A DNA stretch of 64,000 nt. Origin: a virus. Lineage: Duplodnaviria; Caudoviricetes. Made by a program: the position numbers and the translations under genes. The stretch's first letter is position 1. Every line of letters begins with the position of its first letter. Below are positions 8,364 through 22,488 of this stretch, one piece after another. The notes beneath the pieces are model-generated. The model had not been told where the DNA came from and searched no databases. It was given only the letters and a program-made list of their open reading frames with translations. The stretch is taken from IMG/VR virus record IMGVR_UViG_640069307_000003, positions 1 through 64,000 of that record. One strand, written 5' to 3'.

Positions 8364-9478
8364 AAGACAGAAGGAGCCGCATTATGACCACCGATAAGAG
8401 CCGCGCTGATGCGCTGACGGGCGACAAGCGTCAAGCACTCGGCGAAGCATTGACCGAATACTTTGCCGAACTGGATCGCGACATCGGGATCGATACGCCC
8501 GACCGAATTCTGTCCTTGATCGACTATCACGATGAGCGCTTCATCTACGACCTGATCGACCGCGTGATCGTCCCGACTATCGCCGCATCCCCTGTCGAGC
8601 AGCACGAAGCAGCGCCGGCCGGGATCGAGCCGCCACGGCACATCATCGACGCGGCAATGGATGTTGCTCGCGACCAGTATGGACATGGCGTTACCCGCGC
8701 CAGCATCGTCGCAATCTGGAAAGCGCTCGGTAGGCCATGGGCCGCCCCGCTCGAAGGCACGGGCAATGGGGCGGATGAGCGGGCGGCCTGCGAGAAAGCG
8801 TATCAGGCGACTGCTAGTAATCGTAGGACCGATGAGCTCAGCTTCGAGGCCGGATGGGAATGCGCTGTCGAATGGGCGCATGCCCGCGCCCCTCGCACTG
8901 AGGTGGCGGGAGCGGTGCCGAACCCCACGGGCGACCAACTCCGCGCGGCGGTGAGAAGCGTCGGCAGTCTCGGCACGAACCATGCCGACGCACCGCACGA
9001 ATATGTGCTCGCAGGCTGGCGCGCGGCGATGCGTGCTGCCGCACCCTCCGCAGATGCAGCGGCAGCGTCGCAGCCCGTCTCGTGCAAGTGCCGTAGGCTT
9101 GGAGACTGGGACGGCGCGCATCACCCGCTTTGCGACGGAGCAGCACCGCATCCCGCAGCAGCAGCGGGGCAAGAGGCGGTGGAACCGGTGGCGACAGGAC
9201 ACGGACTTAGCGGCATCCCGCGCGCAGCATTCGGCCCACATACCGAGGCCGATCGTATCGACCATTGCGGCGCGTGCGGCGCTGAGAACGCACCTCAGAA
9301 AGACGACGTGTGCCCGACCTGTGGTGCGACCTGCTCGCTCGTCTCGACGTGGGGAGGATTCCAGCACGAGCGCTATCGGAACGGCCAGCGCTACGCGAAC
9401 AACGGCCCGCAGTGGTGGGAAGACGGCCCGCAGCCTGCCGCCCCGACAACCGCTACTTCCCCGTCTGCCGAAGGATAA
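8360..9478 (+). CDS. Mosaic Ead/Ea22-like early protein with Cys-rich modules
   Basis: Ala/Pro-rich linkers (PVEQHEAAPA, PRTEVAGAV) between short modules, including CKC..H..LC and CxxC..CxxC. Confidence 0.65.
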   Translation: MKDRRSRIMTTDKSRADALTGDKRQALGEALTEYFAELDRDIGIDTPDRILSLIDYHDERFIYDLIDRVIVPTIAASPVEQHEAAPAGIEPPRHIIDAAMDVARDQYGHGVTRASIVAIWKALGRPWAAPLEGTGNGADERAACEKAYQATASNRRTDELSFEAGWECAVEWAHARAPRTEVAGAVPNPTGDQLRAAVRSVGSLGTNHADAPHEYVLAGWRAAMRAAAPSADAAAASQPVSCKCRRLGDWDGAHHPLCDGAAPHPAAAAGQEAVEPVATGHGLSGIPRAAFGPHTEADRIDHCGACGAENAPQKDDVCPTCGATCSLVSTWGGFQHERYRNGQRYANNGPQWWEDGPQPAAPTTATSPSAEG

Positions 9479-9626
9479 GCGCACCGCGCCGATGGCCCAA
9501 GCTCTCAAGCTGGTTCCTTCGGCCGCAGTGCGGGCAGAACACGTAGATGCCGAACGAATCGATTCCGATTTTCTCGGCGTCGAAAGCCCATTCCTTGTGG
9601 CACTTGATGCACAGCCAAGTATTCAC
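9453..9626 (-). CDS. Small antisense zinc-ribbon protein, 57 aa
   Basis: GGAGG RBS 5 nt before GTG; CIKC...CPHC; fills the gap between two + strand genes. Confidence 0.65.
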   Translation of the reverse strand: MNTWLCIKCHKEWAFDAEKIGIDSFGIYVFCPHCGRRNQLESLGHRRGALILRQTGK

Positions 9627-9656
9627 GACGACCTCCGAAGGCCGGAAGGACAGGAA

Positions 9657-10184
9657 ATGAACGATAGGACAAACCCGGTGGAAAGCAAGGCCGCGCAGGC
9701 AGCGGAACCGGTCACGCAATGGCAATACCGGACGAAGGTTACGACCGGCGTGTGGTCGCACTGGCACAACTGCAAGGAAGCTCAGGCGCAGCGGCTCCGT
9801 GAACCGGAATATGCGACATACAACCAAGTACGCGCGCTCTACGACACCCCGCGGCCTACGGCGCAGGCAGACTATCGAGGCGAAGATGCCTACGTCACGA
9901 AACGTCTGTCGGAGGCACTGGCCAGCGTCTACACAACGCTCATCGGCGACGACAAGGCGGACGTAGACGAGAACATGAACGCATTCGAGCGCGTCGAGCG
10001 GGCCGCTCAGGTGATCCGCCTCGAAGTAGAGCTTTATCGCGGACAGGCAGACGCTCGGGAGGGGCTGACGGCCGACGACGTGAGCGAATTGAAGGGCATG
10101 ACGAGCGATCCGCGCCTGTTTGAAGCCGAGCGCGAGGCTATCCGAAAGGCTGTTGCCCTTCTCCAAGGAGCCAACCAGTCATGA
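9657..10184 (+). CDS. Mosaic early phage protein
   Basis: AGGA RBS; start MNDRTNPVES; linker motifs AEPV / QADAREGLT. Confidence 0.6.
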   Translation: MNDRTNPVESKAAQAAEPVTQWQYRTKVTTGVWSHWHNCKEAQAQRLREPEYATYNQVRALYDTPRPTAQADYRGEDAYVTKRLSEALASVYTTLIGDDKADVDENMNAFERVERAAQVIRLEVELYRGQADAREGLTADDVSELKGMTSDPRLFEAEREAIRKAVALLQGANQS

Positions 10185-10336
10185 CCGAACGCACCGACGC
10201 CTACGAAGAAGGGCGAGAAGCATATCGACTCGGGTTCAGCGATGCCGACAACCCGCATCTCAACGGCTCGGACGAATCGATGGATTGGTTTGATGGGTTC
10301 AACGATGAAGAACGCGGAGCCAACCATGCCGAATAA
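10181..10336 (+). CDS. Ribosome modulation factor (RMF)-like small protein, 51 aa
   Basis: Not in the ORF track. AAGGAG RBS and ATGA overlap; MTERTDAYEEGREAYRLGFSDADNPH...DWFDGF resembles the RMF pattern. Confidence 0.55.
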   Translation: MTERTDAYEEGREAYRLGFSDADNPHLNGSDESMDWFDGFNDEERGANHAE

Positions 10337-10862
10337 CAACGTGCTGACGGCTGGCGAGCGCAACGCGATCGAGCGCGCGATCAGCGAGGTCGAATTGTGC
10401 TGCCAGTTCTCGCTGGCAAACGAGTTGCGCGCCCTTCTCGCCGCCCATCCGGGCCAGCCGGAGCCACGCGACGCAATCGCACGCTCGAAGCGAATCCTCA
10501 TGCTGGTCGATGAGTATCACGATAACCCGACGAGCGACACGCGCACGGCCCTTCGCGTCGCGCTGATGGACGAGTTTCAACCGGAGCCGCGTGCCGAGGT
10601 GGCGGAGGAACAGCCGAGCCTCACGAACCCGCTGACGCCTTACGGCATGCTCGTCCGCGCGCTGCGCGTCGCCGCCAAAACGACGCTGAACGACATGGCG
10701 AAGCATATGCAGTGCGGTCCCGCAGCCCTGTCGGCGGTCGAATTCGGCCGCAAACCGCTCACGGACGCGATGGTTGCTGATACGGCGGCGTACTTCTCCA
10801 GCGTCGGTATCCATGACACGTTACACGCATTGAACGCCGCCCGCGCAGGAGACGCATCGTGA
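10326..10862 (+). CDS. Mosaic early protein with C-terminal XRE-type HTH
   Basis: C-terminal YGMLVRALRV...TLNDMAKHMQCGPAALSAVEFGRKPL. Confidence 0.6.
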   Translation: MPNNNVLTAGERNAIERAISEVELCCQFSLANELRALLAAHPGQPEPRDAIARSKRILMLVDEYHDNPTSDTRTALRVALMDEFQPEPRAEVAEEQPSLTNPLTPYGMLVRALRVAAKTTLNDMAKHMQCGPAALSAVEFGRKPLTDAMVADTAAYFSSVGIHDTLHALNAARAGDAS

Positions 10863-11224
10863 GCAAATACGGAAAACTCGCCGCGCCGTCGATAACGGAC
10901 GGCATCATCCGGACTTCGCGCGGGCGCGCCTACGTGCTCAGTGACTGGCCTGACGGCGGCCGGCCGACCGATCATTTCGATCAAGGTCGGTGGGCGGACT
11001 GCCTGCACGCATGCCTGTTCGCGGCATCGCTGCGCGGAATCCCCGCGGATATCGAGGACGACGGCCCGGTGCACGAACTCTCGCACCTCGTCTGCGGCAT
11101 CCCGATCTGCACCCACAACACGATGGAGAATCTTCGCGAGCAGGTACACGAGCTGGAGCTTTTCGTATCAGACTTCGTATCGCGCGCCGGGCTGAATCCC
11201 GCTCCGGCAGGGAGAGGAGCATGA
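10859..11224 (+). CDS. Hypothetical phage protein
   Basis: GTGA and ATGA overlaps on both ends. Confidence 0.55.
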   Translation: MSKYGKLAAPSITDGIIRTSRGRAYVLSDWPDGGRPTDHFDQGRWADCLHACLFAASLRGIPADIEDDGPVHELSHLVCGIPICTHNTMENLREQVHELELFVSDFVSRAGLNPAPAGRGA

Positions 11225-11544
11225 GCAAGCGATTCGAGTTCGAGCGGTTCGACGTGCGCGGGTGCGCATGCGATGAATGCGATACAGGCGTGACGCCCAG
11301 CGCAGAGTTCGATGGTGAATGGGTCAAGGCGCAAGCCGCGCTCGACCGCGAGGCCGTATTGCAGGCGCAGATTCGCACGCTGGAAGTACAGTTGAAAGAG
11401 ACGCGCGCACGCGCACTGGATGAAGCAGCCGCCGCAATCTCGGACCACCGCCGCGCCGGGCGCGAATGGGTTCCAGCGAGCTTTTGGGCGAACGTCACGA
11501 ACGAGGCAGCCGCGCGCATCCGCGCACTGAAGGAGGCGAAGTGA
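11221..11544 (+). CDS. Hypothetical phage protein
   Basis: GGAG RBS; start MSKRFEFERF; coupled overlaps. Confidence 0.6.
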   Translation: MSKRFEFERFDVRGCACDECDTGVTPSAEFDGEWVKAQAALDREAVLQAQIRTLEVQLKETRARALDEAAAAISDHRRAGREWVPASFWANVTNEAAARIRALKEAK

Positions 11545-11990
11545 GAGAACTGGAACCCTGCCCTACCTGCGGTTCGGGCGACGTCGGCGGCGCGAGCGGC
11601 ATCGTGCATTGCTATCGGTGCAAGGCTGAAATGCGCGCCGCCACCACGCCGGAAGCAGCCGAGCGCTGGAACATTCGCGCGGTTTTCATCCGCCACGGGT
11701 TCATCATCCCGACGGACAGCGAAGCCATCTATAGGGCTGCGCGCGCGTTGCTTGAACACGACCGCGAGCGGCGCGGCAATCCGGGCGAGGATGCCATGCA
11801 GACGGCGGCGCGCGACCTTCCCGACGGCTACGAGCTGCGCGTGTGCCTCGAACGCGGCGCGGGATGGGTAGAGTTTTATGCGCCGGATGGCGAAGCAGTC
11901 GATCTGGCGGACGATACCGATGACGGCATGACCGGGCGCATCCGCAGCGCGACCCAAGCCGCCATCGAGCACGCAAAGGAGCGGACATGA
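11541..11990 (+). CDS. Lar-family restriction-alleviation-like zinc ribbon fused to a second module
   Basis: ELEPCPTCGS...HCYRCKA...EAAERWNIRA pattern; AAGGAGG RBS with GTG start. Confidence 0.6.
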   Translation: MRELEPCPTCGSGDVGGASGIVHCYRCKAEMRAATTPEAAERWNIRAVFIRHGFIIPTDSEAIYRAARALLEHDRERRGNPGEDAMQTAARDLPDGYELRVCLERGAGWVEFYAPDGEAVDLADDTDDGMTGRIRSATQAAIEHAKERT

Positions 11991-12196
11991 GCATCGTCTA
12001 TACCGCCGACGTGTTTTGTGATGGCGACGACTGCTCGCAATGGACGAACGGCGTAACTGGCGTGAAGCCGCCTGAGAAATGGCGTGCTCGCGAGCGGGCG
12101 CAGCACGAACGGTGGATTCACGTCGGCGGGAAAGACTACTGCCCCGCATGCGCAAAGGTGCGCGGCCTGCTGCCGGTAAAGGATGCAGCGCAATGA
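11987..12196 (+). CDS. Small zinc-binding phage protein
   Basis: VFCDGDDC...GKDYCPAC; AGGAG RBS. Confidence 0.6.
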   Translation: MSIVYTADVFCDGDDCSQWTNGVTGVKPPEKWRARERAQHERWIHVGGKDYCPACAKVRGLLPVKDAAQ

Positions 12197-12372
12197 AGCG
12201 TGAGCCGGTCTACGAGGGCGGGCGGCTGACCGGACACAATGTCCACTACCCGCCCTCATACATCACCGTGCGCGACATACGCGGGTACGAATCGCTGATT
12301 CAGGTGAGGCCCGCACGGACGGTTTTCGAACCGGTCGAGCGCCAGAGCAGCATGTTTGACGACGAGGAGTGA
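12193..12372 (+). CDS. Hypothetical phage protein
   Basis: ATGA overlap; start MKREPVY. Confidence 0.45.
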   Translation: MKREPVYEGGRLTGHNVHYPPSYITVRDIRGYESLIQVRPARTVFEPVERQSSMFDDEE

Positions 12373-12659
12373 CCATGCCGAAAGGACGGCGGATTTACGG
12401 CGTGTTCGCCAACACGTCATACGAGGGCGGCGATATCGTCTGCTCGTTCGATAGCGAAGACGACGCCAAGGCGTTCGCGCAGAAGTGCCGCGACTACGAA
12501 GAAAAGCGCCCTGCCATGCTCGACGCTGACGCGACTGACGCGGACTGGGATGCGTACATCAAGCGCAATGCGAACTGGGAGAAGCGGCACCCCGCGCGCC
12601 CGTATTTCATGCGCGATTACGCCGTTGCTCCATTCCCGCATCACACGAAGAAGGATTGA
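12369..12659 (+). CDS. Hypothetical phage protein
   Basis: GAGGAG RBS; coupled. Confidence 0.6.
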   Translation: MTMPKGRRIYGVFANTSYEGGDIVCSFDSEDDAKAFAQKCRDYEEKRPAMLDADATDADWDAYIKRNANWEKRHPARPYFMRDYAVAPFPHHTKKD

Positions 12660-12896
12660 ATGACCTACATGGCACGTAATCAACGCGACACGCCGCCGCT
12701 GAAGGACGGCGAATACTGGGCGACCTGTAAAGAGCGCAGCCCGATGGCGGCGATTTTGAACGGGCATGGCGCAGTCTTCCCTCAATCTCGAATGACGGTG
12801 CGCGATGGATGGGCCTATTTCATGAGGGACGGCAAAGAGGTGTGGCGATGCAACGCCCGCTATGCCGCATTCAATTTCACGATTCAGGACGCTTGA
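12660..12896 (+). CDS. Hypothetical phage protein
   Basis: Directly follows the upstream stop. Confidence 0.55.
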   Translation: MTYMARNQRDTPPLKDGEYWATCKERSPMAAILNGHGAVFPQSRMTVRDGWAYFMRDGKEVWRCNARYAAFNFTIQDA

Positions 12897-13210
12897 TGAA
12901 GAAACCGTATCTGGTCGAAATGACCTTCACGATTGCCGTCATGGCAAACGACGAGAATCACGCCGCCGAGGTCGCGGAAGAGCATGCGTGCGAGGCTGTG
13001 ACGCATGGTGACATTCCGCCAACCGCCGGCTCGATCGATCTGCTCGACCGGCTAGATAAGCTGCGCGATGGATGGACAGGCGACTGCGTGCCCTACGGGG
13101 CCGACGACGACGCAGACTTGAAGATCCTCATCGCCGAACAAACCGGCGGCCCGGCTGGCACGCTCGACACTCACACGATTGACATGTTCAAGGAGCAAGT
13201 AGCGGCATGA
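12896..13210 (+). CDS. Hypothetical phage protein
   Basis: TGATG overlap; start MKKPYLVEM. Confidence 0.6.
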   Translation: MKKPYLVEMTFTIAVMANDENHAAEVAEEHACEAVTHGDIPPTAGSIDLLDRLDKLRDGWTGDCVPYGADDDADLKILIAEQTGGPAGTLDTHTIDMFKEQVAA

Positions 13211-13521
13211 AAGTATCCGAAATGAGCGGCGCATCGCTCAACTACTGGGTTGCTCGCGCGGAAGGCGTAGACCACGCCATCGCCACGCGCGACGCGATGA
13301 ACTACCGCCCATCGGAAGTCTGGTCGCAGGGCGGGCCGATTATCGATCGCGAGCGGATTACGGTAAACGCGTGGCAGGATGGGTCCGGCGAATGGACAGC
13401 AGACGTTGAGCGCGCAACGGGCCCGATCGCTGCCTACGGCGGAAAAACCGCGCTCATCGCCGCGATGCGCGCCTACGTAGCTTCCAAATTCGGCGAGGAG
13501 GTTCCCGATGCAGGTATCTGA
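13207..13521 (+). CDS. NinX/DUF2591-family protein (copy 1)
   Basis: LNYWVARAEG...WSQGGPII...ALIAAMRAYVASKFGEEVPD. Confidence 0.75.
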   Translation: MKVSEMSGASLNYWVARAEGVDHAIATRDAMNYRPSEVWSQGGPIIDRERITVNAWQDGSGEWTADVERATGPIAAYGGKTALIAAMRAYVASKFGEEVPDAGI

Positions 13522-13879
13522 ACTGACGGGCGCAATGCTCGATTACTGGGTTGCGCGCGGATGGGAACTGACGGACCCGGTTATCGGAAGCGATGACGTG
13601 TGCCGCGTGCTCGTGAAGCCCGCGTTTGAATCGCAGCCGCGTCGCGTGAACTACCTGCCGTCGTCCTCGTGGGTGGATGGCGGGCCGATCATTGAACTCG
13701 GCCACATATCCGTCCGCTGGATCGACGATGAGACGCTTTACGGCCAGCCTGTGCCGCCGCACTGGGTAGCCGAGCACCCGAGCGTCAACTATGGGATCGA
13801 GGGCGCTACGGCGCTGGAAGCCGCGATGCGCGTCTACGTCGCCAGCAAGTTCGGCGACACCGTACCCGACAACGAATAA
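13508..13879 (+). CDS. NinX/DUF2591-family protein (copy 2)
   Basis: LDYWVARG...WVDGGPII...ALEAAMRVYVASKFGDTVPD; paralogue of the upstream gene. Confidence 0.75.
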   Translation: MQVSELTGAMLDYWVARGWELTDPVIGSDDVCRVLVKPAFESQPRRVNYLPSSSWVDGGPIIELGHISVRWIDDETLYGQPVPPHWVAEHPSVNYGIEGATALEAAMRVYVASKFGDTVPDNE

Positions 13880-13913
13880 CCACCGCCCACCGGGCACAAC
13901 CGAGGGAATACCA

Positions 13914-14183
13914 ATGAGAACGACCATTACGGCCGCTATGCTGGCCTGTGCCGCGCTGACCGCGTGCGGGCACCAACCGGTAGTCGAGAACAACGAAATC
14001 GGCTACATGAGCCGTCAGGAAGTCTCAGCAGCCATCGCCGACTGCGAGAGCGCCGGGCAGCGCGCGAGCGTGATCTATGCAAAGGCCGACTGGCGCGGCA
14101 AAAAGGTTCCGGTGCCGGTCGATGTGCAATGCGCTCCGCGCGGGCCGGGCAACTATCGTATCGGCCTGCAACGCGACGAATAG
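13914..14183 (+). CDS. Putative lipoprotein
   Basis: GAGGG RBS; signal peptide with lipobox LTAC. Confidence 0.65.
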   Translation: MRTTITAAMLACAALTACGHQPVVENNEIGYMSRQEVSAAIADCESAGQRASVIYAKADWRGKKVPVPVDVQCAPRGPGNYRIGLQRDE

Positions 14184-14242
14184 CCGCCAGCGCGGCATAG
14201 CCTTCCGGGCACTCCCCTGCATAAGGGCAGCGCCATTCTTTA

Positions 14243-14425
14243 TTATTCGAGCGCGGTTTTCACGAGCACGGCGAGGCGCAGATATTCGCCGACCCACTTC
14301 GGAAATTTCGAGCGGCCGGACACCCATCGGCTAACAGTCGTAGGATCGACGCCAAGGCGGCGCGCGAACTCGGCTTGCGACCACCCGAGCACGGCGAGGG
14401 AGTGAGATAAATCAGAAGCTTTCAT
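14243..14425 (-). CDS. Small XRE-family HTH protein
   Basis: LGWSQAEFARRLGVDPTTVSRWVSG; divergent from the ncRNA promoter. Confidence 0.75.
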   Translation of the reverse strand: MKASDLSHSLAVLGWSQAEFARRLGVDPTTVSRWVSGRSKFPKWVGEYLRLAVLVKTALE

Positions 14426-14468
14426 GACCGCCATCTTAGCAAATTGCCGATGTTTTTCCCGGCATGTA

Positions 14469-14497
14469 TAGGCATTTCAATATTTCGCCGTTATACT
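14469..14497 (+). promoter_or_regulatory. Promoter TAGGCA-N17-TATACT, upstream of the structured RNA cluster
   Basis: Strong -10 box, 4/6 -35 box and 17-bp spacer. Confidence 0.5.
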
Positions 14498-14616
14498 GGC
14501 GACGCTTTCAGGCGAGGCGGCTAGGCCATGAGCGCATCATGGGGACGGGCCGGGCATTTCAATGCGCTGACGCCCGGCACGTTCGCGTTATCCGCCTCTC
14601 TGAAAGCACTCTCAGA

Positions 14617-14742
14617 ACGGCCGTAGCTCAGTCAGGTAGAGCGCCCCTCGTATGGGGAGCGGAGCACGCACACGGGAGCACCCGTGCTGCTATCTCCGGG
14701 TATCGGCCGGTACGCGCGTAGGTTCGAATCCTGCCGGCCGTT
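14617..14742 (+). ncRNA. tRNA-like element (Thr CGT-derived), atypical anticodon arm and ~60-nt variable-region insert
   Basis: Acceptor ACGGCCG/CGGCCGT; D arm TA-GCTC-AGTCAGGTA-GAGC; T arm GTAGG-TTCGAAT-CCTGC; anticodon arm only CCC-CTCGTAT-GGG; no encoded CCA. Confidence 0.75.
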
Positions 14743-14743
14743 C

Positions 14744-14909
14744 TGAGGGTGAATGCGCAGGCTGATGCGCGCGCAACGGATTAGTGCTCAGGGCTTCATA
14801 TTCGCCGGCCGTCGGCCGGAGGTTCGGACCTAGCCCGCCCGAGGTATCCGCCCCGTGTGGTATTGGAAATCTAGATAAGGAATGCCGGGATCAGCTCCGG
14901 CCACTCTCA
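14744..14909 (+). ncRNA. Structured RNA motif, copy 1 (kissing-loop architecture)
   Basis: P1 TGAGGGTG/CACTCTCA; hairpin GCGCA-GGCTGA-TGCGC; hairpin GCCGG-GATCAGCT-CCGGC; loops GCTGA/TCAGC are complementary. Confidence 0.75.
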
Positions 14910-14988
14910 CATCTTCACGCATGGCGATTGCCCGTAGGTGCGAGCGCGCGGAGCACGGCGCGCAGGGCCGAACGCAAGTCGCCATGCT

Positions 14989-15142
14989 TGAGGGTGAATG
15001 CACGGGCTGACGTGCGGCGGATGGAAGCGAACCGGCGGCGACGAATGTCCTAGGCTGTACCGCGCGCGAGCGCGAGCGAAGCGGCTACGATAAAAAATCA
15101 CCGCGCCCCTATGCCGGAAGAATTCAGCACCGGCCACCCTCG
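14989..15142 (+). ncRNA. Structured RNA motif, copy 2
   Basis: P1 TGAGGGTG/CACCCTCG; hairpin GCACG-GGCTGA-CGTGC (compensatory changes versus copy 1); hairpin GCCGG-AAGAATTCAGCA-CCGGC. Confidence 0.75.
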
Positions 15143-15279
15143 ACGATCCGCATCCGTCGGAATCAATCCGAGCCGCATACACTCCTCCCCCTCCCGCCAC
15201 TTCACAATCGCGCTTGCTCGGTTGTGCCATCCCGCTTCACGGGGTAAATTCGTCAGACGGAAACAGCGGAGCGTCCCGA

Positions 15280-15996
15280 ATGGCCTCTGTGACAATCGAA
15301 TTAGGATCTGGAAAGCGCGCGACGCTGACCCGCGCGAGCGGTTCCGCCGGCGCGAACCTGTCGGCCGGTCAACGCAGCGACGTATCCGAATTGATGCTGC
15401 ACTGGCCGAAGTACGAGGGCCTGACGGCGAACGCGCGGGAATACCTGCGCCAACTGGGCCTAGACGCGCTCCAAGGCGCGCCGCTCGATGCGCTCAGGTC
15501 CGCCATCGAAGAAGGTCGCGTTGCGGTCGAAATCAGCCGCCATGTGGTCGGCGGCGGCGCGTCTGGTGGTCAGCCCTCAACCCCACCTTTCCCGCGGGCC
15601 AGCAGGCTCGCCAGCGTGCCGGGAGTGGCCTCGCTGCCGGTGGACAAGCCTCTCCCAAGTTGGGCCACGCCGAGCGACGTGTCGGCAGGCGAACTGATAA
15701 GCTATTTGGAGAGCGTCGTAGGCGGGGCTGGCGCTACCCTTGCCGATTCCGCGTCCGGGCTGGTTGACGGCACGCCGCTCGGCGACGCTGCACCGTTCTC
15801 GCTGGATGATTCGCCACTGGGTGACGTACTAAACGTGGCGGCCGTGGACCCGTTCCAAGAAGAACAGTGCTTCGCGCGATACGAAATCGACATGGAAATG
15901 TGCGCGGCGGCCGGCGCAATGTACAAAGACCCACGGACCTACGCGCTATGCTCGCAGCGGGCCTTCGACAAATACCAGACTTGCAGAGGAATGTGA
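15280..15996 (+). CDS. Hypothetical protein, possible polymorphic-toxin-like architecture with Cys-rich C-terminal domain
   Basis: GGAG RBS, start MASVTIELG; low-complexity linker TPLGDAAPF; C-terminal C-x10-C-x13-C-x10-C. Confidence 0.55.
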   Translation: MASVTIELGSGKRATLTRASGSAGANLSAGQRSDVSELMLHWPKYEGLTANAREYLRQLGLDALQGAPLDALRSAIEEGRVAVEISRHVVGGGASGGQPSTPPFPRASRLASVPGVASLPVDKPLPSWATPSDVSAGELISYLESVVGGAGATLADSASGLVDGTPLGDAAPFSLDDSPLGDVLNVAAVDPFQEEQCFARYEIDMEMCAAAGAMYKDPRTYALCSQRAFDKYQTCRGM

Positions 15997-15997
15997 C

Positions 15998-16306
15998 ATG
16001 AGCAAACCGCAACGCGCGACCATCGTGTTCTACGACGAGGACACCGAACAGGTGACGCTGTGCACCGTGTTCCGCAAGGACGTACAGGCCGTCCTCGACC
16101 GCGAACTAAATGCAGGCGTCGCCATCACGATCCCGCCGCACGCCGAGCCGAACGACGGGTGCGAGATTACCGACGAGGACGCGCGCCGACTCGGCGGTAT
16201 GGCGCTGCTGATGCAGGCGGGCGCACACCCCGAATTGCGCGACCGGCTGAAGTTCGCCGAAGCTGGTTCCGTTGACTGGTCGCCCGTCCGCCGCCCTGAC
16301 GCCTGA
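15998..16306 (+). CDS. Small acidic protein, possible cognate partner or immunity protein
   Basis: Starts 1 nt after the upstream stop; AGAGGA RBS. Confidence 0.55.
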   Translation: MSKPQRATIVFYDEDTEQVTLCTVFRKDVQAVLDRELNAGVAITIPPHAEPNDGCEITDEDARRLGGMALLMQAGAHPELRDRLKFAEAGSVDWSPVRRPDA

Positions 16307-16328
16307 CACTACCCGCTACCCGCGCCGC

Positions 16329-16955
16329 CTAGGACGGCGATTCAACCTTCTGCGCCGCTGCGCGCACGCGCTTTACGGTCGCCGGGCTGCACCCGGCAAG
16401 GCGGGCTGCGTCAGAAACACCGTGGCCGCCGGCCAACAGCGCCAGCACACGCCGATGCACCGCTTCGTCCGGCTTACGGCCGGCGTAGCGCCCGTCCCGC
16501 TTCGCAATCGCAATGCCCTGCCGCTGGCGCTCGCGCCGATCCTCGTAGTCATCGCGCGCCGCCTGCAGGGCGACCTTCAGCAGCATGTCCTGCACCGATT
16601 CGAGCACGACCTTAGCGACGCCGCGCGCATCGGCCGCTAGGTCGGTCAGGTCGACGATGCCCGGCACGGCGAGGCGCGCGCCCTTCTCCCGGATCGACGC
16701 GACAAGGCGCTCGGCATCAGCCAGAGGCAGGCGGCTGATGCGGTCGATCTTCTCCGCGATGACCACCTCGCCCGGCTGGAGGTCCGCGATCATGCGTTGC
16801 AGTTCGGGACGATCAACGCTCGCGCCTGAAGCCTTCTCGCGGTACACGCCCGCGACGTAGTAGCCGGCGGCGCGCGCGCCCTCTACGATGCCTTCCTGCC
16901 GCTCGATATCCTGCTGCTCGGTGCTAACGCGCAGGTAGACGCGTGCGACTTTCAT
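16329..16955 (-). CDS. Serine resolvase (RP4 ParA-like multimer resolvase)
   Basis: YLRVSTEQQ catalytic Ser motif, REKASG, IDRISR, C-terminal HTH. Confidence 0.92.
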   Translation of the reverse strand: MKVARVYLRVSTEQQDIERQEGIVEGARAAGYYVAGVYREKASGASVDRPELQRMIADLQPGEVVIAEKIDRISRLPLADAERLVASIREKGARLAVPGIVDLTDLAADARGVAKVVLESVQDMLLKVALQAARDDYEDRRERQRQGIAIAKRDGRYAGRKPDEAVHRRVLALLAGGHGVSDAARLAGCSPATVKRVRAAAQKVESPS

Positions 16956-17248
16956 TCCAAGTCCTCCTTCATCGCATCAAGCTTGCCAATCTCGTCATCC
17001 ACCCAACCCTGATACCGGGCAACCTCTGCTTTCAGCTCCGCAAGGCCATCATTGCCGTCGTCGGAACTTAGGGCATCCATCGCCATCGACATGCCGACCC
17101 CATGTAAGCGGAAGTTCTCCAGAATCCGCCTGCGATTGCGCATGAAGTGCAGCTTGAATTCATCGAGCATCGGCACCTTCATGTCGATAGCATCGCGATT
17201 CAACTGCATAACCATGCGGAGCGTTTCAACTTCAACCTTGATCGTCAT
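16952..17248 (-). CDS. Hypothetical protein in the resolvase operon
   Basis: GAGG RBS; ATGA overlap with the resolvase. Confidence 0.6.
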   Translation of the reverse strand: MTIKVEVETLRMVMQLNRDAIDMKVPMLDEFKLHFMRNRRRILENFRLHGVGMSMAMDALSSDDGNDGLAELKAEVARYQGWVDDEIGKLDAMKEDLE

Positions 17249-17263
17249 GGAATCCTCGCGCTA

Positions 17264-17761
17264 TCAACGCTTATCGGCGCGGGCCTGCTCGACGTCCTCG
17301 GCCGTTTCGCCGATCAGGACGTAGGCAACCGGCCCGCGCGCCGAGCCGGGCGAACGGAAGAAAGACGCGCACGACAGGCCAAGCGCTTCGGCATCGCGCA
17401 TCAATTGGGTGATCCTTTCCCGCAGAGCGTCGAACGGTTCGCGCTCGCGTAGCTCGCCAGCGTCCAGCGTGCCGCCTACCCATTCCTCCCCGGCACCGAG
17501 CGCGGCGGCGTGGGCTTCGCTATCGAGATACGCAGCCCAAGCATCGACCGCCTTCCCTGTATCGCCCGCACGCTTCATCCACTCTGCTCGATCGGACTCG
17601 GCCAATCCGTTCCACCAGTACATGCCGGCATGGGGATCGCGATGCGGATCGGCAGGGAACGCGCCGCCGCCCATCTCGATACCGTCGCGATAGAACTTGA
17701 CGTTCCAACCGCCACCGGCCTTCTCCAGCCGCTTTGACACTTCGAAAGTTTGCTCCGACAT
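17264..17761 (-). CDS. Hypothetical protein in the resolvase operon
   Basis: GAGGAG RBS; first gene after the res site. Confidence 0.65.
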   Translation of the reverse strand: MSEQTFEVSKRLEKAGGGWNVKFYRDGIEMGGGAFPADPHRDPHAGMYWWNGLAESDRAEWMKRAGDTGKAVDAWAAYLDSEAHAAALGAGEEWVGGTLDAGELREREPFDALRERITQLMRDAEALGLSCASFFRSPGSARGPVAYVLIGETAEDVEQARADKR

Positions 17762-17780
17762 ACTGGCTCCTCGCGGGTCG

Positions 17781-17866
17781 GTTCATTTGGGTACACCTTA
17801 ATGAGCGACTATGACACGACCGGCTCAAAATGAAAAGCCCGACTCAAATGAGCCGGGCCTTTTTGA
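17781..17866. other. Putative res (multimer resolution) site; the distal palindrome may also act as a terminator
   Basis: Site-I-like dyad GTTCATTTGGGT-AC-ACCTTAATGAGC resembles the RP4 mrs crossover site as recalled; further GGCTCA/TGAGCC dyads at 17820-17860. Confidence 0.6.
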
Positions 17867-17880
17867 ACCATCCATGTGAG

Positions 17881-18153
17881 CTATCGAGCGCCGCGCTGCT
17901 GTGCCTTGATGCGCGTGTTGATGTGGGCGTTATTGCGACGCTCTCGCCACCTGTTCTCGCGCCGCAAGTGCGCGACCTCGCTTTCCCGCTCGTAGTCGTA
18001 GTCGCGCGCCTCTACCTTGACCGGCTCGGCGTACCTCTCGCGCACGCGCCCGAAGTCATCCGCAGTCACGATGACCGAGCCATCGGCCAGACTGCGTGCG
18101 ATGGCAGCGCCAAGTGCGGCCGGACCGAGAACGATCAGCGTGCGTGTCGTCAT
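17881..18153 (-). CDS. Hypothetical phage protein
   Basis: GAGGG RBS; start MTTRTLIVLG; basic C-terminus. Confidence 0.5.
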   Translation of the reverse strand: MTTRTLIVLGPAALGAAIARSLADGSVIVTADDFGRVRERYAEPVKVEARDYDYERESEVAHLRRENRWRERRNNAHINTRIKAQQRGAR

Positions 18154-18166
18154 GGTCGCGCCCTCA

Positions 18167-18793
18167 TCACGCCTGCGCGGCGAATTGCTGCGAAGCCGCC
18201 AGCAAGTCGGCACTCGACAATTCCGCATTGGCGTCCTGTCGCCCGCACGCGGTCGACTCGCTCGCGCCGCCCAGTTGCGCGACCATCGAGCCGTGATGCG
18301 CAGCAAGCGCTCCATACTCCGCCTGCGCCTTGGCAATCAGGCCGCGCAGGTCGCTGACAGCGCGGTTGCGCGACTCGCGCCCCGCCAGAAAAGCCAGCGC
18401 GGCGAGGCAGACGAGAAAGCCGAGCACGAGCAGCGCGTCAGGAACCGCCCATGAATGCGCCTCGTGATACGAGCCGATATCGCGCCATGCGAACCATGCG
18501 AAGAACGCGAGCACGGCCATAAGCACGGTGCGCCAGCACAGCAACATGCCGCAGATGCGCCCGAGCGCGCCGAGCTTGCCGCGAATGTGCTCGTCAGCCT
18601 CCGCGCTGCGATAGGTGCGCGCCACGTTGTACACGAACGCGGCAGCGACTGCCGACCAAAAGCCCACCATCGTCAGCTTGCCGCCGAGCGTGTCGAACAG
18701 CCAGCGCGAGCCGAGCGCGATGGCCTCGACCATTGCGAGAGTGACGCCGATGGTGAGCGCCCAGTACGTCGAGTGATTGAACAGTTTGCGCAT
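18167..18793 (-). CDS. Membrane protein (about 4 TM segments) with C-terminal coiled coil
   Basis: Hydrophobic stretches; GGAG RBS. Confidence 0.65.
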   Translation of the reverse strand: MRKLFNHSTYWALTIGVTLAMVEAIALGSRWLFDTLGGKLTMVGFWSAVAAAFVYNVARTYRSAEADEHIRGKLGALGRICGMLLCWRTVLMAVLAFFAWFAWRDIGSYHEAHSWAVPDALLVLGFLVCLAALAFLAGRESRNRAVSDLRGLIAKAQAEYGALAAHHGSMVAQLGGASESTACGRQDANAELSSADLLAASQQFAAQA

Positions 18794-18858
18794 ATGGTTC
18801 TCCGTTGAATTTAAGCGCCTAGACGGGCCTCTGGCGGATGCCGCGACCTTACCCCTTG

Positions 18859-19449
18859 TTATGCAGCAGCGGCCCGCGCAGGCAGCGACAGGCGGCCCGA
18901 GTAGCGGCGAATGAGAACCGCGGTCAGGATGACGCCACCAGCCAGCGCGAACGCCACGAGTCCAATCACGAGCATCACGATTGCGCCGCCGTCGTCGTCT
19001 TTGCTATCGGACTTGAACAGGTCGCCCACAACGGAGAACGCCTCGCCGATTCCGCTGACCGCGTCGACCATGTTCTTGACCTGCGCGAACGTGTTGTATG
19101 CGGCAATGCCCATGTCCAGAATGCGACGCGTGCGGAACGCGACAATCCACGACTGGATCGTGAGCACGAGGCCCGTTCCGATGGCCGGGACAATCACGAC
19201 CAGATACCAGAGCGAGGCCGCCGAGCGCGCTGCCGCTGGCGGCAGATGCCCGGTTGCGTATAGCGCATAGCCCGCGACGAAGCCAATCACGCTGCTGAAG
19301 CCAATCGCGGACTGCGCCGCGGCGCACCACGCCACGAGACGAATCCATCCGCCCAAAGCCTTCGATTCCTGCCAGATGCCGCCGACCGACCAACAGTTGA
19401 GCCAGCTAATGCCGAAGTTCAACGCGAGTACCAATGCAAAGCCCATCAT
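18859..19449 (-). CDS. Integral membrane protein (about 4 TM segments)
   Basis: Alternating hydrophobic helices; GAGG RBS. Confidence 0.7.
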   Translation of the reverse strand: MMGFALVLALNFGISWLNCWSVGGIWQESKALGGWIRLVAWCAAAQSAIGFSSVIGFVAGYALYATGHLPPAAARSAASLWYLVVIVPAIGTGLVLTIQSWIVAFRTRRILDMGIAAYNTFAQVKNMVDAVSGIGEAFSVVGDLFKSDSKDDDGGAIVMLVIGLVAFALAGGVILTAVLIRRYSGRLSLPARAAAA

Positions 19450-19751
19450 TCCGCCTCTCCCTTGTTTGCCACTGCCACGTCTTTTTGCTCCGCCTGCCGG
19501 ATCAGTTCGCCGAGAAAGGCCGTAAGCCGCTGCTCGAATCCGAAGTTGCCGGAATGCAGCACGTCCATTTGCGCCATCGCTTTGAGTTTCAGCGCATCAG
19601 CCTTCCCGATTTGCTCACGTACAGTCTTTAGTCGCTCCTCCGCGGCCTTGACGGCCTGCTCAAGATCGGCCTGTTCCTCGCGCAGGGCGTTCGCACGGCG
19701 CACATGCGCGAGCACGCCCGCGATGCCCTCCTTGTTCGGGCGGCCGCTCAC
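19446..19751 (-). CDS. Coiled-coil hypothetical protein
   Basis: Coupled overlaps. Confidence 0.55.
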   Translation of the reverse strand: MSGRPNKEGIAGVLAHVRRANALREEQADLEQAVKAAEERLKTVREQIGKADALKLKAMAQMDVLHSGNFGFEQRLTAFLGELIRQAEQKDVAVANKGEAE

Positions 19752-20380
19752 GATTGCGTCTCCGCTACCAGCGGTCGATTGCCAGCCTCAAGCGCACGCA
19801 CCTTCCCGGCCGCATCGTCCTGCGCACCGACGGCGATCCCCATGCGCGCACCCATCAGCCGCACGTTGTCCCAAAACGCGCGCGCCGCCTCATCGGGCGT
19901 CACATCGTCGCCCAGCTCCACGCGACCGTCTGCGCGAATCGAAAACAGCACGCGAGGTTGCTCCGCCACTGCACGAATGACCAGAGACGGTTTGAGCGCA
20001 TCAGCATTGGCGATTGAGAGCGCACCGCGCTGATACCAGCGGAGAGGCGTAGCGTCGGATTCGCCGCACTCAGCGGGTGCGTCCGGCACATCGACGACGC
20101 GCTTTTCGCCCTCCATCCAGCTATCCTCCATGTTGATCGGCTCCGGGCCGGACACGCACACGGCGCGCTCCTTCACGTCCGACCAGTTCATGTTGTTCGA
20201 CGCCCATTCGGCAGCCTCGGACGGGTCTTTCTCGAACTGCGCAAGAATCCCGCTCAGTGCCGCGTCAGCGTCGCCGCCGAAGTCGATTGGCGCGTAGTAG
20301 TCGGCGCAGTTGCGCGCGATGACCTCGACCGGGATATTCCACTTGCTGCCGTCGAGCGCAGTCAGTTGCAGCACTTTCAT
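19748..20380 (-). CDS. Two-domain hypothetical phage protein
   Basis: GAGG RBS; DGSKWNIPVEVIA...WASNNMNWSDVK motif. Confidence 0.65.
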   Translation of the reverse strand: MKVLQLTALDGSKWNIPVEVIARNCADYYAPIDFGGDADAALSGILAQFEKDPSEAAEWASNNMNWSDVKERAVCVSGPEPINMEDSWMEGEKRVVDVPDAPAECGESDATPLRWYQRGALSIANADALKPSLVIRAVAEQPRVLFSIRADGRVELGDDVTPDEAARAFWDNVRLMGARMGIAVGAQDDAAGKVRALEAGNRPLVAETQS

Positions 20381-20577
20381 GCCTCACCTCCCACCGACAG
20401 ATGGCGCGGAATCGGACGCTGGCTCTCGCGCGCCGCGTGCGCCGCATCCAATGCGCCGTCGAGCGTCGAGCATTCGCCCCTCGCCTCCGGCACGTCGGGG
20501 AAAGTGACGGTCCAGCGTTTGGTGCGCGGGCACTGACGGCCACGCGGCTTGATGACGGTCTTGCGAATCAGGTGCAT
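20377..20577 (-). CDS. Truncated HicB-like protein
   Basis: WTVTFPDVPEARGECSTLDGALDAA resembles the HicB N-terminal fold. Confidence 0.4.
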   Translation of the reverse strand: MHLIRKTVIKPRGRQCPRTKRWTVTFPDVPEARGECSTLDGALDAAHAARESQRPIPRHLSVGGEA

Positions 20578-20595
20578 GTCTATGGTTCCGATGAG

Positions 20596-20949
20596 TTACT
20601 GCTGGTTCTTGGCGGCGCGGTAATCGCGCATCCGTTTCTTGATGGCCTCCGCGTTCTCCTCGTAGTACTTCTTTTTCTTCGCGAGGATTTCCGCGGCGTG
20701 CCGCTGGTAATGCCGTTTCACTGATGCTGCGATGGCGGCGCGCCGCGCGGCCGGGTCCGTCTGCATGGCCTTCTTGTAGCTCGCATACGCGCGCCGCCGC
20801 TCGCACTCCACGCACCTACGGCTTTTTGTGTTGCGCTCCGCTATGTGCCCGTTACGGCACGCCTCGCCAGTGAAGTAGCGTGTAAGGCCCTGCTCTGCTG
20901 CCTGTTCCCGAGTGATGATTGTCGGGGGCGGTTCCTGCATCGAATCCAT
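20596..20949 (-). CDS. Cys/His zinc-motif protein resembling the N-terminus of HNH homing endonucleases
   Basis: GLTRYFTGEACRNGHIAER...CVEC plus a KKYYEEN basic repeat; no HNH core. Confidence 0.6.
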   Translation of the reverse strand: MDSMQEPPPTIITREQAAEQGLTRYFTGEACRNGHIAERNTKSRRCVECERRRAYASYKKAMQTDPAARRAAIAASVKRHYQRHAAEILAKKKKYYEENAEAIKKRMRDYRAAKNQQ

Positions 20950-20959
20950 TGCGTTTTCC
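20918..20959 (-). promoter_or_regulatory. Putative late promoter (TTAGGAAAA-N30-GACAAT) at the terminase 3' end
   Basis: Identical boxes and spacing to the capsid promoter. Confidence 0.5.
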
Positions 20960-22488
20960 TAAGCGGTAAGTCCCATTGACGCGAGCAGGGCTTGCCGCGC
21001 GATTTCCTTTTGGTCGCCCGCATCGACGACGGTTTCCTCGGCGAGGGAGTAATGCGCGTCCTCCAGAAAGGCGAACGAGAGCGCATCGAACACGTCAGGC
21101 GACGGGAGGTTTTCTTTCTCGCGCATGTCCTCCTTTTTCATGATCTGGCGGCGCGCCTTCTCGTCCCAAAAATAAGGAATTCGCGATCCCTGCTTGACGA
21201 GCTTTTTGACGAACGACTTCGGCACGTCGGGATTGATGCCGAAGCGGCCCTCGGTAATGGCGCGAGCGAAGCCGCAGCACGCCTGCGCGCGCTGGTTCAC
21301 GTAGCGGTCCTTGTATTCCTTGGCGAAGTTGGGATTGCCCCAGTTCACCTTGCGGTATTGGCTGAAGCCGTCGAGGTCAAGCTGTTTGCAGACGATCAGG
21401 CCCATACCGCCCGCGTCGATCATGGCCGTTGCATTGCTGCGCTCGCGCGCGGCATGAACGATGACGCCGTGCAGCTGCGCCGGGTCTTGCGTGTTGGAGT
21501 GCAGCGGCACGCTGATAAGCTGCGCGCGCCGTGCGTCCATCCCGTACTCGCCGCGGCCGATGACGTGCAGCGCAGGCATAACCGTTTCGTCGCGCCATCC
21601 GCCGCCGCCCACGTCCACCGGGAGCAACCAGCCCCAGTGCTCGTCCGGCTTGATGACCGTGCGCCCGACGCATGCCTCGATGGCCTGCGGCCCCACAAGG
21701 TACTTCGACGAGTTCTCCGGGAACCGGCCCTGCACCTTGATCTGATACTCCTCCTCCGTGTATTGCAGCTTCTTTTCGGCGATGAACTTGGCCGAAACGA
21801 TGGGTGAGAATTCGGAGTTGAATACGAGGTTGTTCCACGGCCCGCCCTCTGCGCGCGAGAGGGCGTGGTGTGTTTCGTAAAAGAAGCCGCTTGAGCGCGT
21901 CGGCTGCGACGCCAGACACATGCGGTTGCGCTCGTCGGTCAGCGAGCCGGTGATAACGCCGAAGTTGTCGTCTGGAATGCCCGACGCCTCGTCCGCGAGC
22001 CACAGAAGCCAGTCACGGTGCGCGCCCGCGAGGTTTTCCGGGCTGCCGCGCGGCGCGGACTTGGCGATGACGAACCAGTTCAGCTTGTAGCCGCGCACAT
22101 ATACGCGCTCGGACTCGATGACGAAGTACTCCCATATCCACGACTGCGGGCCGTTCGATATCTTCGTCGAGAGGTCGGCGAATTCTTTCCACACGCCATC
22201 CGACACGGTCGAGATTTTCGGCGCGGTCAGGATCGTGTTGGAGAGGTAGTAGCAGAGCAGGTGCCACAAGGCGATGATGGCAAAGCCGGACGTTTTGCCC
22301 GTGCCGTGACCGGACGATACGGACGTGCGCGAGCCTTGCTTGCTCACGCTGTCAAACATCTGGATCTGATGATGCGTCGGCGCTTTCAGCCCGCATACCT
22401 CGATGGCAAAGCGCGTGCAGTCATCCGCATACCGCTCGACGAACGAGAGGTAGCGCGGGTCTTGCAGCAGCGTGCGCCTACTCGCCAT
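20959..22488 (-). CDS. pacB: Terminase large subunit (P1 PacB-like)
   Basis: Walker A SGHGTGKT, Walker B LADEASG, nuclease VDVGGGG and SPDVFDAL. Confidence 0.9.
   Translation of the reverse strand: MASRRTLLQDPRYLSFVERYADDCTRFAIEVCGLKAPTHHQIQMFDSVSKQGSRTSVSSGHGTGKTSGFAIIALWHLLCYYLSNTILTAPKISTVSDGVWKEFADLSTKISNGPQSWIWEYFVIESERVYVRGYKLNWFVIAKSAPRGSPENLAGAHRDWLLWLADEASGIPDDNFGVITGSLTDERNRMCLASQPTRSSGFFYETHHALSRAEGGPWNNLVFNSEFSPIVSAKFIAEKKLQYTEEEYQIKVQGRFPENSSKYLVGPQAIEACVGRTVIKPDEHWGWLLPVDVGGGGWRDETVMPALHVIGRGEYGMDARRAQLISVPLHSNTQDPAQLHGVIVHAARERSNATAMIDAGGMGLIVCKQLDLDGFSQYRKVNWGNPNFAKEYKDRYVNQRAQACCGFARAITEGRFGINPDVPKSFVKKLVKQGSRIPYFWDEKARRQIMKKEDMREKENLPSPDVFDALSFAFLEDAHYSLAEETVVDAGDQKEIARQALLASMGLTA

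Follow-up and report, generated by a model that had tools for sequence, protein, structure and literature searches.

The window analysed here comprises 64,000 nucleotides (positions 1 to 64,000) of the 88-kb IMG/VR record IMGVR_UViG_640069307_000003, which derives from a Burkholderia-type phage-plasmid; coordinates are window positions unless another locus is named. Preceded by a nin-type gene block (NinX) and a divergent small helix-turn-helix gene (14243-14434, − strand) lie ~640 nt (14504-15141, + strand) without a credible open reading frame (ORF). This locus is a strand-specific modular array of folded non-coding RNAs, in which a promoter-like site, a leader hairpin, a tRNA-like element, a first cloverleaf, a long hairpin, and a second cloverleaf follow one another from 5' to 3' (Table 1). 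The two cloverleaves, which are the only copies in the whole record, belong to an RNA family that we found in more than 150 IMG/VR contigs.

Table 1. Elements of the array, with their positions in the window (MFE, minimum free energy; P1, closing stem; P2 and P3, hairpins).
Element	Position	Strand	Basis or remark
Promoter-like site, TAGGCA-17-TATACT	14469-14497	+	Weak sigma-70-like; 9 of 12 consensus matches; consensus match alone
Leader long hairpin, first module	14504-14607	+	Inverted repeats and MFE fold
Upstream competitor strand, CACTCTCAGA	14607-14616	+	Pairs with 14742-14751, including the P1 5' strand of cloverleaf 1
tRNA-like element	14617-14742	+	Rfam RF00005, 40.9 bits (cut-off, 29)
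Cloverleaf 1	14744-14908	+	Covariance model R1, 81.8 bits
Cloverleaf 1, P1	14745-14751/14902-14908	+	
Cloverleaf 1, P2	14755-14759/14766-14770	+	
Cloverleaf 1, variable insert	14771-14883	+	
Cloverleaf 1, P3	14884-14888/14897-14901	+	
Cloverleaf 1, kissing pairs	14761-14765 (GCUGA) with 14891-14895 (UCAGC)	+	
Long spacer hairpin between cloverleaves	14910-14996	+	Inverted repeat and MFE fold
Cloverleaf 2	14989-15141	+	Covariance model R1, 76.1 bits
Cloverleaf 2, P1	14990-14996/15135-15141	+	
Cloverleaf 2, P2	15000-15004/15011-15015	+	
Cloverleaf 2, variable insert	15016-15112	+	
Cloverleaf 2, P3	15113-15117/15130-15134	+	
Cloverleaf 2, kissing pairs	15006-15010 (GCUGA) with 15124-15128 (UCAGC)	+	

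An earlier interpretation of this locus (hereafter, the sequence-only reading) had proposed a continuous structured RNA of ~640 nt, equipped with a promoter and lacking a convincing ORF. The absence of coding capacity is borne out, as the ORFs at 14464-14721, 14784-15053, and 14907-15230 have no Pfam match and fail a coding filter that demands a third-position GC of ≥0.75. A promoter-like site was also found, the sole sigma-70-like site within 14100-15500 and with a predicted transcription start near 14504, yet it is a weak one, recognized by its match to the consensus. When a 651-nt stretch was folded as a whole, it gave a z of −3.7. The locus is thus structured and non-coding, as had been proposed, but it is not a single 640-nt RNA machine, because its modules are separable: other phages use them singly, in tRNA arrays, or just before terminators.

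RNA sequencing contigs (four runs from one study) cover positions 9000-17820 without any difference from the window, whereas 17822-21000 is almost bare. The array lies within these contigs, and the deepest ones of the region overlie it, which is a weak sign that it is transcribed in the lysogen; the contigs show no strand, ends, or levels. For the same reason, the contig ends at 14739, 14927/14966, and 15153 were rejected as candidate RNA ends, since contigs cannot be read in this way.

The cloverleaves were scored with covariance model R1, which was built from 28 sequences (26 from other phages plus the window's own two copies), and both window copies align along the full model. According to the family plan, a 7-bp closing stem (P1) is followed by an AAU joiner, a 5-bp hairpin (P2), an insert, and a second 5-bp hairpin (P3) that abuts the 3' strand of P1. 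The insert is 25-170 nt long and unalignable between most members, and the whole motif spans 77-215 nt (median, 127), with L027:10474-10550 (77 nt) among the short members. P1 itself varies in sequence (GAGGGUG/CACCCUC, GUUGGUG/CACCAAC, GCAGAUG/CAUCUGC, and GGAGAGG/CCUCUCC, among others). In each window copy, P1 is formed by TGAGGGTG and its own downstream CACYCTC, and the joiner and P2 read GAAU-GCGCA...UGCGC in cloverleaf 1 and GAAU-GCACG...CGUGC in cloverleaf 2, with compensatory changes between the two. Folded in isolation, cloverleaf 1 adopts P1, P2, and P3, and cloverleaf 2 forms P1, with the nested model drawing the loop-loop pairs as a helix that replaces P2 and P3. The thermodynamic z of isolated cloverleaf 1 is ~0; since folding energy is uninformative in its GC-rich sequence, the case rests on covariation.

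Across an alignment of 105 distinct sequences, paired cells amount to 99.2%, compared with 88.2% upon shuffling. Changes on both sides occur at six of the seven P1 pairs and at all five P2 pairs, and P1 is 98.6% paired. In addition, the P2 loop (GUG-NN-GA) is complementary to the P3 loop (UC-N'N'-Y), so that a 5-bp kissing contact can form. This complementarity was assessed by scanning P2 with two free loop positions, with the P3 loop left unconstrained and read independently. The kissing loop proved exact in 40 of 45 cases and none belonged to a wrong class, the remaining five having a shifted register or a wobble; the classes were CU/AG (n = 21), AU/AU (n = 9), GU/AC (n = 7), GC/GC (n = 2), and AC/GU (n = 1). 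Covariation proves the loop-loop contact. Furthermore, many G.U substitutions fit the + strand only, and the reverse strand of one match scores 7 bits versus 83.

These data bear on whether the motif might be a DNA-level element, such as the border of a recombination cassette, an att-like site, or the scar of a homing endonuclease. The modules do look as if they had been shuffled among phages, 7 loci have HNH endonuclease genes upstream, and of cloverleaf 2, Burkholderia phage Menos has just the 3' part, next to attP. Nevertheless, the covariation involves numerous G.U pairs, which form in one strand but not in the other, the loop-loop pseudoknot covaries, and the motif is always co-oriented with tRNAs, which makes a DNA-level role extremely improbable.

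At about half of the loci with two copies in tandem, the second copy carries a differing, orthogonal loop pair (L078:7886-8103, L092:7674-8101, L026:2126-2509, L094:4971-5968, L024, and phage P1), with neighboring loop types such as UCAGC beside CACCA, UCACC, or UCAUC. Orthogonal pairs would be expected if cross-pairing between neighbors were selected against.

We infer that the helix plan, in which 7 bp are stacked without a spacer on 5 bp, a hairpin occupies the D position, and the loop-loop contact resembles the elbow, is the outline of a tRNA whose anticodon arm has been replaced by the insert. The placement of copies within tRNA arrays is a further point of similarity, whereas the missing anticodon arm, T-loop sequence, and CCA, together with a loop contact that is a Watson-Crick duplex, set the cloverleaf apart from tRNA. 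Bona fide tRNAs occur within 1 kb in 14 of the 99 loci that we compared, all of them on the strand of the motif and, in six loci, separated by gaps of 6-15 nt. The nucleotide immediately preceding P1 is a U in 60 of 96 instances.

The window also hosts a tRNA look-alike upstream of cloverleaf 1. A search of the whole window against Rfam 15 at the gathering score returned this tRNA as the sole match in the array, and no full-length match was obtained. It retains an intact acceptor arm together with intact D and T arms of genuine tRNA sequence, and its score exceeds the Rfam cut-off; no CCA is encoded. Unlike in tRNA, the anticodon arm has collapsed to 4 bp (CCCC/GGGG) with a 6-nt loop instead of a 5-bp stem with a 7-nt loop and is not decoding-capable, an insert of ~55 nt forms two hairpins, and the ends are locked in a 17-bp stem. 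ARAGORN called no tRNA at these positions.

Given these resemblances, we considered whether the modules could act as tRNA mimics or decoys for processing or modification enzymes or for tRNA-targeting defense nucleases, thereby enabling phage tRNAs or translation to survive infection. The stacked 7- and 5-bp helices, the elbow-like contact, the embedding in phage tRNA arrays, and the non-decoding look-alike in the window would all suit such a role. However, an RNA without an anticodon loop cannot decoy anticodon nucleases, the hypervariable insert is left unexplained, and the family, which occurs in temperate as well as virulent phages of numerous hosts, is unlinked to any defense or counter-defense gene, so that we regard this explanation as quite improbable.

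HDV (hepatitis delta virus)-like ribozymes beside phage tRNAs suggest by analogy another function, namely self-cleavage that trims neighboring tRNAs. Consistent with this, several helices of the cloverleaf meet in a compact junction, its loops make a tertiary contact, some of its unpaired nucleotides are conserved (AAU and the A before P3), and it may lie 6-15 nt from a tRNA. Its topology is not HDV-like, however, given that the motif terminates with the 3' strand of P1, and the Rfam models for hammerhead, twister, twister-sister, hatchet, pistol, and HDV-like ribozymes remained unmatched at E ≤ 10; a ribozyme is therefore highly unlikely. More generally, the models for ROOL, GOLLD, c4, manA, YrlA, and self-cleaving ribozymes found no match at the gathering score in the window or at E ≤ 10 in 14300-15400. 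ROOL and GOLLD are structured phage RNAs (for their structures, see bioRxiv 10.1101/2024.12.08.627333). They often lie beside tRNA genes and differ from the cloverleaf in being single units of 500-800 nt found mainly in phages of Firmicutes, whereas cloverleaf units measure 77-215 nt and belong to phages of Proteobacteria.

The sequence-only reading regarded the locus as the best candidate for an undescribed system, but the architecture is not wholly new, as it is shared with STnc100 (RF02076) of Rfam. The link is provided by phage P1, the third module of which is matched by the STnc100 model and by R1 at the same coordinates, the former scoring 33.4 bits, which is below the cut-off of 47. Compared via this bridge sequence rather than by direct match, positions 31-147 of the STnc100 model contain, like the cloverleaf, a 7-bp closing stem ending in GGUG/CACC, an AAU joiner, a 5-bp hairpin, a variable middle, and a CCGG-stem hairpin that abuts the closing stem, with complementary loops (GUGC/GCAC). 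Both RNAs are carried by phages or prophages, in late or leader regions. On the other hand, the window copies differ from STnc100 in P2 sequence and kissing pair (GCUGA/UCAGC), and STnc100 is cataloged as gammaproteobacterial, whereas the window copies reside in a Burkholderia/Pandoraea-type phage.

STnc100 corresponds to EcOnc27/sRNA103, an Hfq-bound small RNA (sRNA) encoded just downstream of stx2B (PMC7873438; PMC12711010), and Zhu, Shabalina, and Storz link it to PasD (bioRxiv 10.64898/2026.05.13.724894). STnc100, EcOnc27, and PasD are treated as Hfq-bound or base-pairing sRNAs in these sources (bioRxiv 10.64898/2026.05.13.724894; PMC7873438), the consulted passages of which make no mention of a tRNA shape, a kissing loop, a tRNA-array setting, or a competing strand. 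Collectively, the cloverleaf is distantly related to the prophage sRNA STnc100, with PasD1 and PasD2 as related prophage sRNAs, and the window copies are not members of RF02076 as defined but part of a larger, uncataloged class with the same architecture.

This class is widely distributed. Scanning IMG/VR with an exact pattern for the 5' half yielded 31 contigs, in which the 3' half is present wherever the sequence is long enough; a scan for the 3' half gave at least 120 matches, and an R1 search gave 107 matches at E < 0.001 in 99 loci. With a 79-nt member as the query, 191 GenBank phage records were retrieved (E ≤ 1), with Pseudomonas (n = 59), Klebsiella (n = 54), and Escherichia (n = 35) as the main hosts, alongside phages of Burkholderia, Salmonella, Erwinia, and Aeromonas and Shiga toxin 2 (Stx2) phages. 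Among the GenBank matches listed, the sites are either unannotated or covered by a "hypothetical protein." The cloverleaf or a conserved half of it also occurs in 229 of 5,426 complete E. coli genomes, mainly in P1-type plasmids, and 9 of 151 sampled Burkholderiaceae species genomes were positive. A pattern scan of species genomes gave seven matches, of which those in two Pandoraea genomes are real, whereas the five in metagenome-assembled genomes (15-23 bits) were dismissed as chance. A regular-expression scan for the CGCATGG hairpin was too noisy to be used, the cloverleaf was not found in the lambda Q-S leader, and literature searches on the core sequence strings and on tRNA-like phage RNAs returned nothing relevant.

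In phage P1, R1 copies are located at L161:1681-1779 and 1942-2062, in the leader of the ban operon and just 3' of trnA and trnT, where the modules lie under the antisense ORFs plp and upl. These two ORFs, annotated as "putative lipoprotein" and "unknown," are opposite cloverleaf and hairpin modules at NC_005856 69472-70041 (L161:1335-1904) and are probably not real genes.

An RNA of this kind might have a dedicated protein partner, and 2,997 ORFs within 5 kb of the 99 loci were therefore clustered. No protein family was present in more than 13 loci, and the neighbors are ordinary lambdoid genes (CI-like repressor, terminase, lysozyme, NinG, RecT, and HNH); without a conserved neighbor, there is no partner gene to which the RNA would be tied. 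An intrinsic terminator follows within 120 nt in 16 of 100 copies (within 4-16 nt in 11 of these) compared with 3 of 100 in the antisense direction, as expected of stand-alone sRNA genes.

We next turn to the order of folding. The sequence-only reading held that the P1 5' strand can pair either with its own CACYCTC or with an upstream strand, and all four pairings that it named are present. For cloverleaf 1, CACTCTCAGA pairs with TCTGAGGGTG and lengthens the acceptor stem of the tRNA-like element to 17 bp rather than the 16 claimed (fold z = −4.65), CACTCTCAGAACGGCCG (14607-14623) and CGGCCGTTCTGAGGGTG (14735-14751) being 94% complementary over 17 nt. For cloverleaf 2, the arms of the spacer hairpin, CATCTTCACGCATGGCGA (14910-14927) and TCGCCATGCTTGAGGGTG (14979-14996), are 83% complementary over 18 nt with G.U pairs included, and the base of this hairpin, CATCTTCA (14910-14917), pairs with TGAGGGTG (14989-14996), i.e., with the P1 5' strand. 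The leader likewise folds, with the arms GCTTTCAG/CTGAAAGC and GAGGCGGCTA/TATCCGCCTC recovered by inverted-repeat analysis and in the MFE fold. Neither upstream strand is the end of a cloverleaf that precedes it, both being dedicated copies, as 14607-14616 follows the leader hairpin and 14910-14917 follows the end of cloverleaf 1. The leader, tRNA-like element, spacer hairpin, and cloverleaf 1 insert have no sequence homolog among the fetched loci; a motif of the spacer-hairpin 5' arm, CTTCACGCATGG, recurs in loci L017, L026, L165, and L166.

A simple search for 8-mer complements to the P1 5' strand was abandoned as non-discriminating, given that G/U-rich strands pair widely, and was replaced by two other tests. 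In an anchored-helix test, 34 homologs had a strong hairpin abutting the motif, and in 21 of them this hairpin ran on into the P1 5' strand with a minimum of 7 out of 8 bp formed, compared with 7.5% when P1 strands were exchanged between loci. In an MFE test, in which the 8-nt strand was folded together with the 220 nt upstream, seven or all eight nucleotides of the strand were paired in 45 of 99 cases versus 18 of 99 for the reversed-strand control. The upstream partner changes with the P1 class (CACCAACA with TGTTGGTG and CGCCATCA with TGATGGTG), and G.U pairs make up more of the competing helix, with 5.3 Watson-Crick pairs out of 6.4, than of P1. In a nearest-neighbor model, the precursor reaches −306.8 kcal/mol with the competing helices and −290.2 kcal/mol with two cloverleaves, or approximately −301 kcal/mol once two 5-bp kissing duplexes are added, and the full precursor is thus predicted to favor the competing helices. 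Hence, the alternative pairings are conserved and covary with P1 in about half of the homologs but are not a defining feature of the family.

Based on these findings, we propose that the array consists of phage genes for modular non-coding RNAs, in which a tRNA-like chassis serves tRNA-type processing, the insert is the payload, and cleavage orders the folding; we give this reading a probability of about one half. One precursor would be transcribed from the promoter near 14470-14497. P1 would serve as the acceptor-like stem of the chassis, P2 as its D arm, P3 as its T arm, and the kissing contact as its elbow, with an interchangeable insert in the position of the anticodon arm. Host machinery for tRNA processing and RNA stabilization may excise and protect each module, with RNase P acting on the 5' side and RNase III or RNase E in the flanking stems, and the insert would be the working part and may be a base-pairing or protein-binding sRNA, as reported for STnc100/EcOnc27 and PasD. 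In this window and in about half of the relatives, an upstream complementary strand, which lengthens the tRNA-like element or hairpin in front of the cloverleaf, would first capture the P1 5' strand; cutting of the upstream element would free this P1 strand, the cloverleaf could close only then, and the modules would mature in 5'-to-3' order. As the trigger, we infer cleavage by RNase P or RNase III.

Attenuators rely on one strand that pairs with either of two partners, and the stems between rRNA or tRNA leaders and trailers are cut by RNase III. The array resembles both in its three-strand choice and in the long stem that encloses a structured RNA and that, as proposed here, is removed by processing; unlike attenuators, it involves no terminator or ribosome, and cleavage is our proposal. 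Ponchon and Dardel reportedly engineered in 2007 a "tRNA scaffold," in which a foreign RNA placed in the anticodon-arm position is processed and stabilized by the cell. The role suggested for the cloverleaf would be analogous in the position of its payload, but the scaffold is man-made and a true tRNA, whereas the cloverleaf chassis occurs in nature and has a kissing loop for an elbow. More tentatively, the family could be a natural, portable tRNA scaffold that carries swappable RNA payloads across phages of Proteobacteria, with excision and stabilization by host tRNA enzymes, a three-strand timer (the upstream strand and the two P1 strands) that delays folding of each module until its predecessor is cut away, and orthogonal kissing loops that prevent cross-folding of neighbors.

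The same modules could instead be cis-acting punctuation only, that is, processing or stability signals that divide a long phage transcript of tRNAs and mRNAs or protect its ends, with no function in trans. Modules do occur in the leaders of operons and in the gaps between tRNAs and genes, their long flanking stems (17-20 bp) resemble RNase III sites, and their inserts are hypervariable. Yet punctuation needs neither near-invariant loop and junction nucleotides nor a covarying kissing loop, insert types are kept across genera (the cloverleaf 2 insert in L016, L035, and L166), some copies end at their own terminator, and the relatives are Hfq-bound sRNAs (PMC7873438). We consider this alternative rather unlikely.

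Several observations weigh against the chassis-and-payload reading. The 9-nt P3 loop reads AGAUCAGCR and is no T-loop, and neither CCA nor a conserved discriminator base follows P1; because of this, recognition by RNase P is an analogy and not a finding. About half of the homologs lack a competing strand, which makes the competing pairing an accessory rather than a core trait, and in some arrays the upstream strand may be the P1 3' strand of the preceding module, a leftover of tandem duplication. The window copies have no match to STnc100 (RF02076) at E ≤ 10 in 14300-15400. Moreover, sampling was seeded by exact patterns, so that sequence conservation of the core is overstated, and the RNA sequencing support consists of contigs from a single study.

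Whichever function applies, a well-folded RNA is present in hundreds of phages, among them the model phage P1, Stx-converting phages, and phages of Klebsiella, Pseudomonas, and Burkholderia, and has been missed by annotation or covered with doubtful ORFs. It connects an obscure sRNA family (STnc100, EcOnc27, and PasD), located beside Shiga toxin genes, with a far larger class whose three-dimensional plan is defined. The chassis-and-payload reading, if true, would explain how phages shuffle and express small RNAs and would provide a natural counterpart of the tRNA scaffolds of biotechnology. The array is also a concrete example on which it can be tested whether processing sets the order of RNA folding.

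The insert type of cloverleaf 2, which is common to L016, L035 (Pandoraea terrigena), and L166, is conserved across Pandoraea-type genomes (window 15016-15112; L016:4988-5117; L035:6085-6214; L166 G073:C1:3346953-3347081, − strand). It features a purine-rich GAAUGGAAACAACCG-like stretch, which may be functional or act as a seed, and is closed by a helix that covaries (GGCG/CGCC versus GGGG/CCCC). Burkholderia phage Menos (OM638610 31603-31714; L002:3001-3112) shares window positions 15055-15170 at 80% identity, i.e., only the 3' part of the cloverleaf 2 insert, the P3 hairpin region, and the promoter-like stretch that follows. In Menos, the shared segment directly follows the tRNA-Ser fragment of attP and has three hypothetical cargo genes downstream, and it resembles the remnant of a module or else a cargo boundary that is shared. 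In L003, an IMG/VR contig also represented in Pandoraea bronchicola, the reverse-transcriptase-associated RNA RT-15 (RF03018, 143 bits; L003:6593-6775, − strand) lies ~5 kb from a cloverleaf.

Directly 3' of the array, two ORFs of 260 and 102 aa without a Pfam match (15214-16306, + strand) separate it from a serine resolvase gene (16329-16955, − strand), and the RNA sequencing contigs run on through both to ~17820. On the 5' side, adjacent ORFs of 104 and 123 aa (13207-13879, + strand) have alike N-termini, and the second of them matches the Pfam family of P22 NinX; the pair may have arisen by tandem duplication in the nin region.

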